Source: Bacteroidota bacterium (lineage in GTDB: Bacteria > Bacteroidota > Ignavibacteria > 0-14-0-80-59-12). Taken from it: 64,000 nucleotides of DNA. Every line of letters begins with the position of its first letter. Positions within the stretch are counted from its first letter, which is position 1. Made by a program: the position numbers and the translations under genes. Shown here one piece after another: positions 55,339 to 59,492 of the stretch. The stretch lies in assembly GCA_049973045.1 (NCBI GenBank), contig JBMFJZ010000003.1:142319-206318 (forward strand), read 5' to 3'. The notes below the pieces were generated by a model, which was given only the letters and a program-made list of their open reading frames with translations, had not been told where the DNA came from and did not search any database.

Positions 55339-55455
55339 ATGACTGACGGCAAGCCAACGATAAAGGATGTCGCTAGGCGAGCGGGGACAGCTGTGAGCAC
55401 TGCTTCGCTCGTTGTGAATAAAAAAGGTTACGTAAGCGCAGAGGTCAGTGCCAGA
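55339..55455 (+). pseudogene. Remnant of a LacI-family transcriptional regulator (HTH only), fused in frame to the following foreign gene
   Basis: KPTIKDVARRAGTAVSTASLVVNKKGYVSAEV matches the LacI HTH consensus TIKDVAxxAGVSxxTVSRVLNxxGYVSxET; an abrupt shift to AT-rich sequence follows. Confidence 0.6.
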
Positions 55456-55491
55456 TCTTTTATAATTGCCCTAATTAATTTTGGAAATACT

Positions 55492-58437
55492 ATGTATAAA
55501 AAAGAAATTTTAATAATCTTCTTCTTGTTTTCATTTAATCTGTATGCACAAAATTTTTCCAATGGATTTAATTTTTATTTACCATCCAGTGATACAACTT
55601 CTCAAAAATTTTTACCTCAATTTCCCATTGATAAAATTGAAGATGATGAATTTGTATCTATCAATGCTGAAGGGAAATTTAGTGTAAAAGGGAGAAGAAT
55701 TCGTTTATGCGGTACAAACTTTGGAGCTGATAATGCTTTCCCGCCAAGAGATAAAGCCGGACTTTTAGCCGGACGTTTGAGAAAATTTGGCTTTAATCTT
55801 GTACGCATGCATCATCTCGATAATCCATGGTCAAACAGAAGTCTTGTAGGCAAAAGCGATACACGAGAGATTATTCCTGCTTATCTCGACACTCTCGAAT
55901 ATACAATAGCAAAACTCAAGGAAAATGGAATTTATGTGAACATGAATCTCCATGTTTCAAGAACCTTCAGAATTTTTGATCAGGTTGCAGATTATGATTC
56001 GCTTCCAAAATTTGGAAAAGGTATAAATTTCTTTGACCCCTATATAAAAAGTCTTCACAAAGAATATGCACGTCAACTGCTTACTCATGTAAATCCATAT
56101 ACTGGCAAAGCATTGGTTAATGACCCGGTTATGGCAATGGTCGAAATTACTAATGAAAATTCTCTATATCGGTTCTGGAGAAATAATCAGTTAAAACCAA
56201 TTTCATCTGGCGGTGTTTTACCATACTATTATTCAAAAATGCTTGATAGCCTGTGGAATGAATTTTTATTAAGCAAATATCAATCAACCCAGAATTTATT
56301 GGCAGCATGGAACAAAGGACAAATTTCATCTGTTCAAAATGAACAGGTAAAAAATGGAGGTTTTGAAAATCCTAATCCTCCAAATTACTGGGCTCTGGAA
56401 GAACATAATGGCGCTGATGCAGATACCTCACGCGATGATTCTGTTTCTTATAAAGGAAATTACAGCTTTAAAGTTATTGTAAAAAATGCTACTGGAACAA
56501 ATTGGCATATTCAATTCAAATTACCTTCAGCTACAATATTAAAAGATTCTTTATATGCACTTTCATTTGCGGCTTGTTCAGATTCACCGAAAGAAATTGC
56601 TGTTAATATTATGAATGATAATTCACCATGGAATTCTTATGGATGGTATTCAATAAAATTATCAACAAACTGGCGAACATTTTCTTTTAGCATTAAAGCT
56701 CCCGAAGATAACAAAGGTCATACAAGATTGTCATTCAGTCTTGGCAAAGAAAAAGGAACATATTGGTTTGACGAAATTAGTTTTACAAAAGCCGGAGTTG
56801 TTGGTTTAGAACAAAATGAATCACTCGAATTAAAAAATATTGCAAGAATAGATTATTCAAAATGTGTTCAATACACAAATCAACGTGTTAAAGATATGTC
56901 CGAATTTTATATCAATCTCGAAAGAAATTATTTCAAGGAAATGATTTCGTTTTTGAAAGATACACTTGGTGTGAAAGTGCCAATTGTTGGAACCAATTGG
57001 AATGTAGGTCCAGCAGATTTAGCAGCAATGTCTGATGCTGATTATGTTGATAATCATGCTTACTGGGACCATCCGCGATTCCCATCAGGTGCACGGTCTT
57101 CAACTGATTGGCTTATTAACAATACTCCAATGGTAAAAGATAATAACGGCGGAACTATACCCGGTTTATTTGCTGGTGTTCCAATTGTTGGTAAACCTTT
57201 TACTGTTAGTGAATACAATCATACGTTTCCAAATCGATATCAGGTAGAATCAATTTTATTCATTGCCGGCTATGCTTCTTTTAATGATGCAGATGCATTT
57301 ATGTATTTTGACTACAGCGAAGCTTTTGAATGGGAAAAAGATTTTATTGCTAATTTCTTTGGAATTAACCGCAATTCTGTTTTGATGTCGTTTTTTCCAA
57401 CTATTGCTTATGCATTTAGAAATGGTTTAATCAAGCCCTCGTTAAATCCAATTCATATAAATTACACAGCAGATACTTTGTATGCCTTACCTAAGAATGA
57501 TGCTTCTGGCTGGTATGGTCCTTCTTTTTACGATAGAAAAATTTCTCTCATTCATTCGATTAAAACAGAAAATTATTTTGGAACAAGCACGACTAACTTT
57601 AATCAGCTACCTCAAATTTCTGGTAATTCATTCACAACTGATACAGAAGAAATTACTTGGAATACTACTGATGGAACATTAACCATAGCTGCACCAAGAC
57701 TAAATGGATTTACCGGATATCTTTCTAAATTAAAAGGAAAAAGGATTGGCGATATTTATGTGATTGATGTTCTCTCATCAGATGATTTTGGTGCTCTAAC
57801 ATGGTTGTCTTTAACAAACAATCCGGTTTCAAGTTCAAATAAATCTTTAATTACAATCGGCTCTAAAATTCAAAATACTGGAATGATCTGGAAAGGAACA
57901 ACAACAGTTAATAATAATTGGGGACATTCACCGACTCAAATTTATCCATTAAAAATCAAACTCGATTTGATGATTTATGCTGATTCAATTAGAGTTTATC
58001 CGCTTGACAATAAAGGAAAAGAAAATTTATCACGGTCGTTTGTAATAAAACCATTTCAGACAAATCATTTTTTATTAGAAATTGACCAGTCAATTTATAA
58101 ATCACTCTGGTTTGGAATTGAATGCTATGGAGAAGGAATAAAAACAAAAATTAATGATTATGGTTTAAGTCCCTTTAATTATAAATTGGAACAAAATTTT
58201 CCTAATCCATTTAATGGAACTTCAATTATAAAATATCAGGTTCCTGAAAACACAATTGTTAAAATAAAACTTTACGATATTTTAGGAAGGGAAATTAAAA
58301 CACTCGTTGATGAATATAAGACCCCTGGCTATTATCAGATTGAAATGAATTCCGAAAATATTTCAAGTGGTGTATATTTCTGTGCTTTTCAATCAAATAA
58401 TTTTGTAGATGTAAGGAAAATTGTTCTTATAAAATAA
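55492..58437 (+). CDS. Secreted clan-GH-A-like glycoside hydrolase with a CBM4_9-like carbohydrate-binding module and a T9SS C-terminal sorting domain. A mannanase role is suspected from context only
   Basis: Signal peptide MYKKEILIIFFLFSFNLYA; TIM-barrel-like catalytic region with an NE motif (VEITNENSLY); CBM start NGGFENP; CTD NFPNPFNGTSIIKYQV...GVYFCAF...LIK. Confidence 0.6.
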   Translation: MYKKEILIIFFLFSFNLYAQNFSNGFNFYLPSSDTTSQKFLPQFPIDKIEDDEFVSINAEGKFSVKGRRIRLCGTNFGADNAFPPRDKAGLLAGRLRKFGFNLVRMHHLDNPWSNRSLVGKSDTREIIPAYLDTLEYTIAKLKENGIYVNMNLHVSRTFRIFDQVADYDSLPKFGKGINFFDPYIKSLHKEYARQLLTHVNPYTGKALVNDPVMAMVEITNENSLYRFWRNNQLKPISSGGVLPYYYSKMLDSLWNEFLLSKYQSTQNLLAAWNKGQISSVQNEQVKNGGFENPNPPNYWALEEHNGADADTSRDDSVSYKGNYSFKVIVKNATGTNWHIQFKLPSATILKDSLYALSFAACSDSPKEIAVNIMNDNSPWNSYGWYSIKLSTNWRTFSFSIKAPEDNKGHTRLSFSLGKEKGTYWFDEISFTKAGVVGLEQNESLELKNIARIDYSKCVQYTNQRVKDMSEFYINLERNYFKEMISFLKDTLGVKVPIVGTNWNVGPADLAAMSDADYVDNHAYWDHPRFPSGARSSTDWLINNTPMVKDNNGGTIPGLFAGVPIVGKPFTVSEYNHTFPNRYQVESILFIAGYASFNDADAFMYFDYSEAFEWEKDFIANFFGINRNSVLMSFFPTIAYAFRNGLIKPSLNPIHINYTADTLYALPKNDASGWYGPSFYDRKISLIHSIKTENYFGTSTTNFNQLPQISGNSFTTDTEEITWNTTDGTLTIAAPRLNGFTGYLSKLKGKRIGDIYVIDVLSSDDFGALTWLSLTNNPVSSSNKSLITIGSKIQNTGMIWKGTTTVNNNWGHSPTQIYPLKIKLDLMIYADSIRVYPLDNKGKENLSRSFVIKPFQTNHFLLEIDQSIYKSLWFGIECYGEGIKTKINDYGLSPFNYKLEQNFPNPFNGTSIIKYQVPENTIVKIKLYDILGREIKTLVDEYKTPGYYQIEMNSENISSGVYFCAFQSNNFVDVRKIVLIK

Positions 58438-58697
58438 TTCTGATAATTATTTATAATGATTAATTAAAAGTTCTATTTCAGATTATCTTGAATATAGTTT
58501 GGAACCTGAGAAGATAAATTTAATAATGTCATGCTGAACGAAGTGAAGCATCTTAAAAATTATTTTATGGAAAGATGTTTTGAAAATGTTTTTAGTATTT
58601 TTTGCATCAATTTTTGACAGAGCTTTGGGGTGAACGTAAGAATGAAAAACAATAAATTATATGAAAAACAAAATCGCCAAGTTATGAGATATCATAG

Positions 58698-59492
58698 CAG
58701 CTGGAGGGAACTGAGCGGCTATTTAAATTTGCTGCTTCAGAGGTAAGAATTGCGAAGGATTTTGAGGATCAAGTTTTGCAAATGCAGTTAGTACAAGCCA
58801 AGGCAGTAAAGACAGGTATGTTGCACTGGAGAGCAAGAAAATGGAGAACATCGGGGGCGCTATTCTGGCAACTGAACGACTGTTGGCCTGCCTCCAGCTG
58901 GTCCGCCATCGACTATGCGAAACGACCTAAGGCTTTGTACTATTGGTCGAAACATTTCAATAAACCAACGAAAGTGGTCTTTAAGAAAAGGAACGACTGT
59001 GTCATCCCGATTATCGTAAATGATTCATTGACTCCGTTCAGGGGGAAAATCATTATTGTCAAGCAAAAAGTTGATGGGGGAAAATTGTTTGAAATTTCCG
59101 CTAATATTAGTATTGAAAAAAATTCAATCTTGAGAGTCAATAAACTCCCTGTAGAGATTACGGCTGACGAAACAACTTTTCTTTACGCAAGGCTAATTGA
59201 CATAGCCTCTGACGCTGCTGTTGACGAAGAAGACTTCATAGCAGTACCTTGGCTTGATTTTAAGAGGCCGGACATAAAATACGTTATAACGGAGCCCAGC
59301 CCAACCGAAAAGCTGGTGACTTTTGTCAGCAATGTCTTCATTCAGGGCGTTTACCTTGACCTTGGTGAAAAAGTTGGGGAAGTGTCGGACAACTTCTTTA
59401 CGTTATATCCAAATGTGGAAAAGCAGGTGCTTGTGAAGTCTTATCTGATAAAAGACAATCTTCAAATTCGCACCCCATTAGTACAAGAATGA
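58698..59492 (+). pseudogene. C-terminal fragment of a GH2 beta-mannosidase (about the last 260 aa); the upstream part is absent
   Basis: [29 protein letters not shown] is the conserved GH2 beta-mannosidase segment; the frame opens right after a TAG at 58695-58697. Confidence 0.6.

Follow-up and report, generated by a model that had tools for sequence, protein, structure and literature searches.

In the genome of an uncultured bacterium of the class Ignavibacteria, a 3,230-bp piece of DNA from the family Melioribacteraceae, carrying the gene for a GH148-type beta-glucanase, has in all likelihood replaced the core of a resident LacI-regulated mannoside operon and now lies behind the lacI promoter, a reading to which we assign a probability of roughly 0.85. 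The stretch of DNA analyzed is 64,000 nt long (hereafter the window, whose positions are used throughout unless another sequence is named) and derives from one strain, labelled "Bacteroidota bacterium" at NCBI. Its placement in Ignavibacteria comes from the nearest relatives of the genes that flank the locus, namely those for BamA, a DUF2795 protein and an M23 peptidase on one side, and gpmA, prs, L25, pth and S6 on the other. Between the M23 gene and gpmA, the locus exists in three allelic states: empty, occupied by a mannoside island, and occupied by that island with its core replaced. The case is a cleanly resolved yet conventional horizontal gene replacement. It introduces no new kind of system, as gene replacement, the CAZy family, the repressor family and the secretion signal are all known.

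A Foreign Block Within a Resident Operon

The locus is marked by an uninterrupted open reading frame (ORF) on the forward strand (55339-58437) that encodes 1032 aa and joins a LacI stump to a complete secreted hydrolase in the same frame, just as the original prediction for this DNA had described. A second ORF, listed at 238-264 codons, ends at 59492. In 400-nt windows, GC content falls from 0.48-0.51 to 0.25-0.37 between approximately 55.4 and 58.7 kb. The left edge lies exactly at 55449, where GC passes from about 48% to about 32%, and GC rises again at 58679; the block so delimited (55449-58678, forward strand) has a GC content of 31.6%, compared with 47.7% in the rest of the window. Over the second ORF, GC is near 0.42, which is below that of the core host genes.

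The breakpoints were read from strains that carry the intact operon. Other strains were recovered by exact-protein look-ups of the neighboring genes, of which gpmA, DUF2795 and BamA reached contigs in ENA and M23 and orf84 (a small ORF described below) did not. Both sides of the intact allele are found in ENA sample ERZ3623746. On the left, contig NODE_427 carries an identical BamA and, adjoining the M23 gene, a gene for a 342-aa LacI with full Peripla_BP domains; it aligns with window positions 41072-55448 at 99.9% identity, and the alignment ends exactly at 55448. The second gene of the operon (NODE_427 3-1463, reverse strand) encodes a 487-aa secreted protein with a weakly CBM4_9-like N-terminus and a C-terminal domain (CTD) of the type IX secretion system (T9SS), on which basis the lost operon is predicted to have also exported a glycan-binding protein via the T9SS. 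On the right, contig NODE_113, whose gpmA is identical to that of the window, aligns with 58679-64000 at 99.6% identity, with homology starting exactly at 58679. Its gene order from gpmA is an 825-aa GH2 enzyme, a GH130 enzyme, a 452-aa weakly GH9-like protein, a 734-aa MGH1/GDE_C-like hydrolase, two unknowns and two ABC permeases. The GH148-type gene is absent from the ERZ3623746 contigs seen.

The joints are located at 55448/55449 and 58678/58679, where lacI is cut after 110 nt and the GH2 gene before approximately codon 552. Identity between the window and the intact allele is 99.6-99.9% over what they share, namely the flanks, the lacI promoter and the retained ends of the two cut genes (110 nt at the start of lacI and ~814 nt at the end of the GH2 gene). 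Where the intact allele has a full 342-aa LacI, a T9SS-type CBM-like protein, permeases, an MGH1-like glycoside hydrolase (GH), a GH130 enzyme and an 825-aa GH2 enzyme, however, the window keeps the ends of lacI and of the GH2 gene together with the GH148-type gene. The lost segment measures at least 11 kb as seen directly, and probably more than ~23 kb, provided that the stretch between the two ENA contigs includes a further 12.2 kb of NODE_113. That the remainder of lacI is missing had been anticipated, and the sequence indeed diverges from intact LacI after 55448; the claim that most of the LacI gene was replaced proved an underestimate, as the whole LacI-regulated mannoside operon is lost. 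It had also been allowed that LacI sequence might resume after 59492. The stump does match the intact resident LacI, but what follows 59492 is the gpmA side of the flank, and the GH2 gene is itself resident.

What remains of lacI (55339-55448, forward strand) amounts to 36 codons plus 2 nt of the 342-aa repressor and is identical to the intact gene through 55448. The stump alone matches the Pfam LacI helix-turn-helix family at ORF residues 7-38 (E 2.7e-9). The headpiece is nonetheless incomplete: profile positions 1-32 of 46 are kept, the cut falls inside helix 3 and there is no hinge helix. The effector/dimerisation domain is absent from the window, whereas Peripla_BP_1/3/4 are present in the intact allele, and the encoded protein departs from intact LacI after residue 36.

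The GH2 remnant (58679-59492, forward strand) corresponds to residues ~552-825 of 825, about 551 residues of the intact enzyme being encoded upstream of the breakpoint. A 4-nt deletion and a single-nucleotide polymorphism (SNP) at 58696-58701 leave 58679-58697 out of frame, such that the first six kept codons are frameshifted and a TAG is created at 58695. The in-frame portion (58698-59492) matches Mannosidase_ig and Ig_mannosidase, that is, two C-terminal Ig-like domains alone, and aligns to the C-terminal third of the beta-mannosidase 5n6u (residues 568-817 of 836, E 5.9e-35) as well as to residues 580-827 of 2je8. The N-terminal sugar-binding domain and the TIM-barrel catalytic domain are missing; in the intact allele, Glyco_hydro_2_N2 and related domains occupy residues 13-312. 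A homologue search with the fragment returned relatives at no more than 47% identity, the short ones being contig-end truncations rather than fragments. The original prediction was therefore correct in naming a C-terminal fragment of a GH2 beta-mannosidase and mistaken in assigning it to the acquired, eroded block, given its 99.6% identity to the 3' end of the intact resident gene. Relative to the intact-allele strains, the remnant has also lost 6 nt at 59254 (one copy of a tandem "DF" repeat) and carries one non-synonymous SNP (N/S) at 58993. Indels number two in the 814 nt of the remnant and one in 4.5 kb of flank, an excess that, in these small numbers, fits early pseudogene decay. For annotation, this means that the 1032-aa "T9SS type A sorting domain-containing protein" of the metagenome-assembled genome (MAG) is a chimeric ORF and that its 236-aa "GH2 protein" is a pseudogene remnant.

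Distribution of the Three Alleles

The identical 1032-aa fusion protein is encoded on a contig of 344 kb and on another of 281 kb. Over 18.7 kb, 5 SNPs and 1 indel, none of them within the block, separate the 281-kb contig (GCA_049700715.1) from the window, and the two joints are the same; the two are therefore separate assemblies, each carrying both joints. In a third MAG, GCA_049969995.1, whose SNP pattern is that of the intact-allele strain, the M23 contig (JBMFNU010000011.1) ends at window position 55448 and the gpmA contig (JBMFNU010000021.1) ends at 58702. Because these contigs stop precisely at the divergence points of the two alleles, they suggest that both alleles co-exist in the sample. 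Contig ends at such points can flag structural polymorphism.

The empty state is found in a sister species, represented by nine contigs (ENA, JGI and Logan) from at least eight metagenomes, with ~92% nucleotide identity along the backbone. In blastn comparisons, homology to the window is broken only between 54949, where it ends, and 59647, where it restarts. The gap between gpmA and the M23 gene is about 500 bp in these contigs, with an empty site of ~77 bp (locus positions 8446-8524). Since the sister species' site is empty, the LacI-to-GH2 operon is itself an accessory island (54950-59646 in the window), and its GC content is 39-46%. No repeats or tRNA were found at the island borders in this comparison. 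Among GTDB species representatives of more distant Ignavibacteria, the M23-DUF2795-BamA arrangement is kept, and none has lacI, the GH2 gene or gpmA beside it; a scan of JGI metagenomes with a wobble-tolerant pattern of the lacI stump gave no matches.

The island also contains orf84 (55034-55288, reverse strand), an island-specific and possibly spurious ORF of 84 aa that diverges from lacI and has no Pfam family match. Its start codon lies inside the operator-like palindrome discussed below, and its body spans the lacI -35 hexamer. It is annotated in the MAG and is not called on the ENA contig.

Origin of the Block in Melioribacteraceae

The proteins closest to the hydrolase all belong to Melioribacteraceae, with 86-87% amino acid identity in a JGI contig and in MAG GCA_037481715.1 and 79% in Rosettibacter firmus. 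These are followed by hundreds of full-length, equal-length homologues from other Ignavibacteria, KSB1 and Calditrichota. At the nucleotide level, window positions 55473-58674 align with positions 9982-13177 of the GCA_037481715.1 locus, which has 31% GC, at 83.8% identity, and the block is 78% identical to R. firmus. GC content at third codon positions (GC3) is 0.21 in the hydrolase gene, similar to the 0.18 and 0.16 of two Melioribacteraceae orthologues, whereas six neighboring host genes range from 0.42 to 0.53. The block is essentially unameliorated. The foreign nature of the AT-rich block, as first proposed, is thus well founded in both its 84% identity to the Melioribacteraceae MAG and its donor-like composition, the GC and codon-usage profile of the region being far from uniform (0.316 over the block). 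Between the hydrolase gene and its GCA_037481715.1 orthologue, dN/dS is 0.10 and dS is 0.75; given this distance to the nearest relative, the true donor is an unsampled member of Melioribacteraceae.

The window gene resembles its orthologues in GCA_037481715.1, R. firmus and Melioribacter spp. in amino acid sequence (74-87% identity, with one Melioribacter at 60%), in its length of 981 aa, in domain order and in AT-richness. Its setting is different. In Melioribacteraceae, the gene ends a GH3/GH3/esterase/GH5/GH3/GH5 beta-glucan cluster and is followed by a Memo-family gene, whereas in the window it stands alone, with a foreign promoter and fused to the LacI stump. The 3' surroundings traveled with it: the intergenic region and the beginning of the Memo gene both have their counterpart in GCA_037481715.1. 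Specifically, 58438-58660 (forward strand) is donor intergenic DNA that aligns to 12947-13163 of the GCA_037481715.1 locus, and 58661-58678 (forward strand) holds the first 5-6 codons (ATGAAAAACAAAATCGCC) of the donor Memo-family gene, aligned to the gene starting at 13164, which form the right end of the transferred piece. At the left end, an AT-rich junction filler of ~24 nt (55449-55472, forward strand) has no alignment to the host allele and none that is clear to the sampled donors.

Two further elements were seen in the donor intergenic DNA. A promoter scan marked a promoter-like TTGACA-18-AAGAAT at 58614-58643 (forward strand). A hairpin, ATGCT-N11-AGCAT (ATGCTGAACGAAGTGAAGCAT, forward strand), also lies within 58438-58660; it is conserved in the Melioribacteraceae MAG (12947-13163), is absent in R. 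firmus, where the intergenic gap is 26 bp, and might act as a terminator or derive from a small repeat element.

A GC scan of the whole window found just one other stretch that is similarly AT-rich, at 30-31 kb. This low-GC block (29750-31150, 33-38% GC) lies between methylmalonyl-CoA-mutase-like and mutL-like genes, both named by eye, and encodes a toxin-antitoxin-like pair of HEPN (E 3e-16) and nucleotidyltransferase (E 7e-7) proteins along with a HepT-like remnant, and it probably represents a further small insert of acquired DNA.

The Hydrolase Is GH148-Like

The gene for the hydrolase itself (55492-58437, forward strand) is intact, and domain matches, homologues and an AlphaFold2 model agree with the original prediction of a glycoside hydrolase of the T9SS-secreted type that combines a clan GH-A barrel with a CBM4 module. 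A signal peptide at aa 1-19 (MYKKEILIIFFLFSFNLYA, followed by Q), recognised by eye, is internal when the ORF is read as 1032 aa. It is followed by a first half-barrel (A1, aa ~60-275) with the acid/base E222 (codon 56155-56157), an inserted CBM4 (aa ~290-435, 56359-56796), a second half-barrel (A2, aa ~455-645) with the nucleophile E574 (codon 57211-57213), a beta-sandwich region (aa ~650-880) and a T9SS type-A CTD (aa 903-978, 58198-58425). The inserted module therefore sits between the two catalytic glutamates, which occur in the motifs ITNEN (E222) and VSEYN (E574); together with D110, both glutamates are invariant in 57 homologues.

Pfam places CBM_4_9 on ORF residues 334-466 (E 2e-9), and the module at 293-431 matches the laminarin-binding CBM4 of Thermotoga maritima Lam16A (1gui) with a phmmer E of 6.2e-16. 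The sorting domain is recognised by Por_Secre_tail on ORF residues 954-1029 (E 1.3e-9) and by TIGR04183 (E 2.1e-9), above the curated cut-offs. The Pfam match to the GH5 family "Cellulase" is weak and sub-threshold (ORF residues 147-242, E 0.0036). In the AlphaFold2 model (pLDDT 86, pTM 0.78), alternating strands and helices flank the all-beta insert, E222 comes just after strand 214-220 and E574 lies within strand 570-576, a predicted topology that is consistent with a split barrel. Foldseek against PDB gave no full-length match to the hydrolase; CBM4 modules were matched (1gui, TMt 0.81), and GH5 mannanase half-barrels were the best barrel matches.

This architecture is that of EngU, the founding member of CAZy family GH148 (Angelov et al., 2017; PMC5725463). 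EngU consists of a signal peptide, A1 (83-241), CBM4 (293-430), A2 (476-616) and an uncharacterised C-terminal part, and its catalytic residues are E239 (INNEN) and E581 (VTEYN) (Angelov et al., 2017; PMC5725463). The hydrolase likewise has a signal peptide, a GH-A half-barrel, a CBM4 after strand beta-4, a second half-barrel and a long C-terminal region, and its catalytic motifs correspond to those of EngU (INNEN to ITNEN and VTEYN to VSEYN). The sequences were compared through seven EngU peptides decoded from published mutagenesis primers. For all seven, the best local match in the hydrolase is collinear: the four peptides of the first half are offset by 13, 15, 9 and 17 residues and those of the second half by 7, 7 and 6, and three of the seven (D151, E235/E239 and E581) outscore all 300 shuffles; the pairs include, with EngU given first, KPFSVTEYNHSAP and KPFTVSEYNHTFP, and PAIAFVEINNENGL and PVMAMVEITNENSL. 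Judged from these short peptides and from its architecture, the hydrolase is a GH148-like beta-glucanase of the EngU type, whose barrel is interrupted by a CBM4, rather than the GH5 or GH26 mannan-type enzyme that had been suggested. It differs from EngU, which is 905 aa long and has no reported T9SS domain, in having 981 aa and ending in a T9SS type-A sorting domain.

EngU prefers mixed-linkage beta-glucan, and its CBM showed no binding to laminarin (Angelov et al., 2017; PMC5725463), unlike the CBM4 of Lam16A to which the module of the hydrolase is closest. This preference, along with the position of the gene in the GH3/GH5 clusters of donor genomes, points to a substrate of the beta-1,3/1,4-glucan type. 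A mannan-related role of the hydrolase finds no support.

Expression and Export

The region 5' of the stump retains what appear to be the signals of lacI. A sigma-70-like promoter candidate (TTGACA-17-TATGGT, 55240-55268, forward strand) has 10 of 12 consensus matches, and a perfect 14-bp palindrome, TCGAAACGTTTCGA, lies directly 3' of its -10 hexamer (55272-55285) as a candidate LacI-type operator; 0.01 chance matches to the palindrome are expected in the window. A central CG, as this palindrome has, is typical of LacI-family operators. Both the promoter-like site and the palindrome are identical in the two alleles. A Shine-Dalgarno sequence, AGGAGG (55329-55334, forward strand), lies 4 nt 5' of the lacI ATG. 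The host evidently uses such sequences, because GGAGG-like motifs occur at 8 of 13 other host starts inspected; the native hydrolase ATG at 55492 has none. A scan for terminator-like sites between the lacI promoter and the hydrolase found none.

Only ~20-40 nt of donor upstream DNA came along, so that the hydrolase would have to be transcribed from the surviving lacI promoter, whose own repressor is gone. A promoter born at the junction was considered and rejected: the TATAAT at 55461-55466, within the filler, has no -35 partner and was not called by the promoter scanner. As the operator-like palindrome now lacks its cognate repressor, expression would be constitutive, and constitutive, promoter-captured expression is the likely outcome by these sequence signals. 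The suggestion that the promoter and ribosome-binding site of lacI drive the hydrolase is accordingly plausible. Translation would probably begin at the lacI ATG and yield 1032 aa, in which 36 stump and 15 linker residues, 51 in all, precede MYKKEILIIFFLFSFNLYA and the QNF that follows it; initiation at the native ATG (55492) would be the alternative. The in-frame continuity of stump and hydrolase is not significant in itself, as its chance is estimated at ~0.1 (one in three frames, multiplied by the probability of no stop in 14 AT-rich codons). The host owns other proteins with a type-A CTD, of which one is encoded near 4.8 kb in the window and another belonged to the lost operon; it is therefore plausible that its T9SS would recognise the CTD of the hydrolase.

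A second site may relate to the lost repressor. Within the GH2 coding remnant, 58946-58967 (reverse strand) is an inverted near-copy, with 2 mismatches, of the 22 nt at 55265-55286; none is expected by chance (100 shuffles), and the intact allele has this copy too. The likeness between the two sites reaches past the palindrome, unequally on its two sides. The site may have served the lost repressor as an auxiliary operator, or else be a coincidence of history; in the 10 kb of the intact operon that are visible, no further operator copies with up to 2 mismatches were found. In having a promoter palindrome and a degenerate second copy in a downstream glycosidase coding sequence, the arrangement resembles, by likeness only, O2 of the lac operon inside lacZ. 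The separation in lac is 401 bp, however, whereas the two candidate sites, recognized here from sequence, would be more than 12 kb apart in the intact allele.

How the Block Was Acquired

Hallmarks of site-specific or transpositional insertion were sought around the block. No tRNA, tmRNA or other Rfam family was found in 53-61 kb, and an integration site of the tRNA/tmRNA kind was rejected on this ground. There is no integrase or transposase ORF in the block, which encodes the hydrolase and the stub of 5-6 codons only. No direct or inverted repeats were found at the joints, nor any terminal inverted repeats, target-site duplications or attC-like features, and an origin as a transposon or integron was likewise rejected. 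The 22-nt inverted pair at 55265 and 58946 was also considered as transposon ends and dismissed, since GH2 coding sequence runs through the right copy and this copy is present in the intact allele.

That foreign DNA is taken up by illegitimate recombination, whether or not facilitated by homology, and that its genes capture resident promoters, is a general phenomenon. The locus resembles the products of such events in the absence of site-specific hallmarks, in co-deletion, in fillers and scars, and in an incoming ORF placed behind a resident promoter; it differs in that no anchoring homology is demonstrable on either side, the donor being unsampled. We propose that one replacement event, or a deletion plus an insertion, removed everything from nt 111 of lacI to approximately codon 551 of the GH2 gene and put in 3,230 bp of Melioribacteraceae DNA. 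The most likely route would be an end-joining-like, illegitimate recombination by which imported DNA was joined while resident DNA was deleted, because the joints are without homology, duplications, inverted repeats or a recombinase and show a filler and a small deletion. The 24-nt left filler has the look of a repair scar, as does the loss of 4 nt at a point 20 nt inside the right joint. A very recent date for the event is indicated by the donor-like GC3 and by the presence of both alleles among strains that are 99.6-99.9% identical.

Alternative Explanations

All of the genomes compared are MAGs or metagenome contigs, which is the first of several points that weigh against the reading given here. 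It also invites the suspicion that the block, from a co-occurring Melioribacteraceae, was spliced into the host contig during assembly and that the host really has the intact operon. The unameliorated state of the block would suit such a chimera, as would the contigs of the third MAG, which break at exactly both points and so reveal that the assembly graph branches there; yet contig breaks at divergence points are the expected product of co-existing alleles. Moreover, the two-jointed block is embedded in contigs of 281 and 344 kb from two assemblies that differ by SNPs elsewhere, host and donor share no joint sequence able to mislead a de Bruijn graph, the right joint has allele-specific scars (the 4-nt deletion and the SNP), and no sampled Melioribacteraceae sequence comes closer than 84% identity. 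We consider a chimera very improbable. Still harder to credit is a joint arrival of hydrolase and GH2 fragment on a single eroded piece of foreign glycan-utilisation DNA that inserted into a resident lacI standing by itself. In its favor, both genes are involved in glycan breakdown, and the GC of the GH2 fragment is intermediate (42%) and below that of core host genes. However, in another strain the fragment's 99.6% identical counterpart is an intact gene next to gpmA, the last of a long operon of 39-46% GC; donors have a Memo gene and not a GH2 gene after the hydrolase, and Memo codons persist at 58661-58678; and the lacI promoter region and the GH2 remnant have the 22-nt motif in common.

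Further points against our reading concern its details. The size of the loss beyond 11 kb depends on the two ENA contigs being adjacent in one genome, and microhomology at the joints is assessable only with the true donor, as the nearest relative stands at dS 0.75. The promoter and operator are consensus and palindrome matches, and a sigma-70-like consensus may not be that of Ignavibacteria; a paralogous LacI from elsewhere in the genome may bind the palindrome; and the 51-residue N-terminal extension could impair Sec targeting. It is possible, if rather unlikely, that the replacement is real and the hydrolase is silent or mislocalised cargo, in which case the allele would be a neutral or slightly deleterious deletion adrift in the population and the fusion an accident. 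An in-frame fusion is expected by chance about once in ten, the strong Shine-Dalgarno sequence at the lacI ATG puts the extension before the signal peptide, and no donor promoter was carried along. The event is, furthermore, so recent that an intact ORF is no evidence of selection in the new host, and the allele has been seen in two assemblies only. Against this, the lacI promoter-like site, operator and Shine-Dalgarno sequence are intact with no terminator-like site before the gene, and loss of the repressor should raise transcription rather than lower it. The AT-rich leader of the native ATG also permits internal initiation, the host has T9SS substrates, and long, positively charged N-terminal extensions before Sec signal peptides are tolerated in other systems.

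Significance

If the replacement of the operon core by Melioribacteraceae DNA took place as we propose, its net effect would be that an inducible mannoside catabolic operon was traded for a single, probably constitutive, secreted beta-1,3/1,4-glucanase. A bolder proposal is that the fusion and the orphaned operator form a selected, working expression unit, with a glucanase that is constitutive, translated from the lacI ATG and, in spite of its 51-residue N-terminal extension, exported by Sec and the T9SS, and with the 22-nt copy as a relic of long-range looping control. Taken whole, this is speculative and decidedly unlikely. Were it true, the locus would be a natural, base-resolved case of regulatory rewiring by illegitimate recombination, and of a niche switch from mannosides to beta-glucans with the ancestral allele still in the population.

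The value of the locus is that of an unusually clean natural example, in which three allelic states, base-resolved breakpoints and an unameliorated event can be followed in public assemblies. It is usable for studying how bacteria without obvious mobile elements swap catabolic capacities between families, how incoming genes borrow resident promoters, and how strains diverge in their glycan niches.

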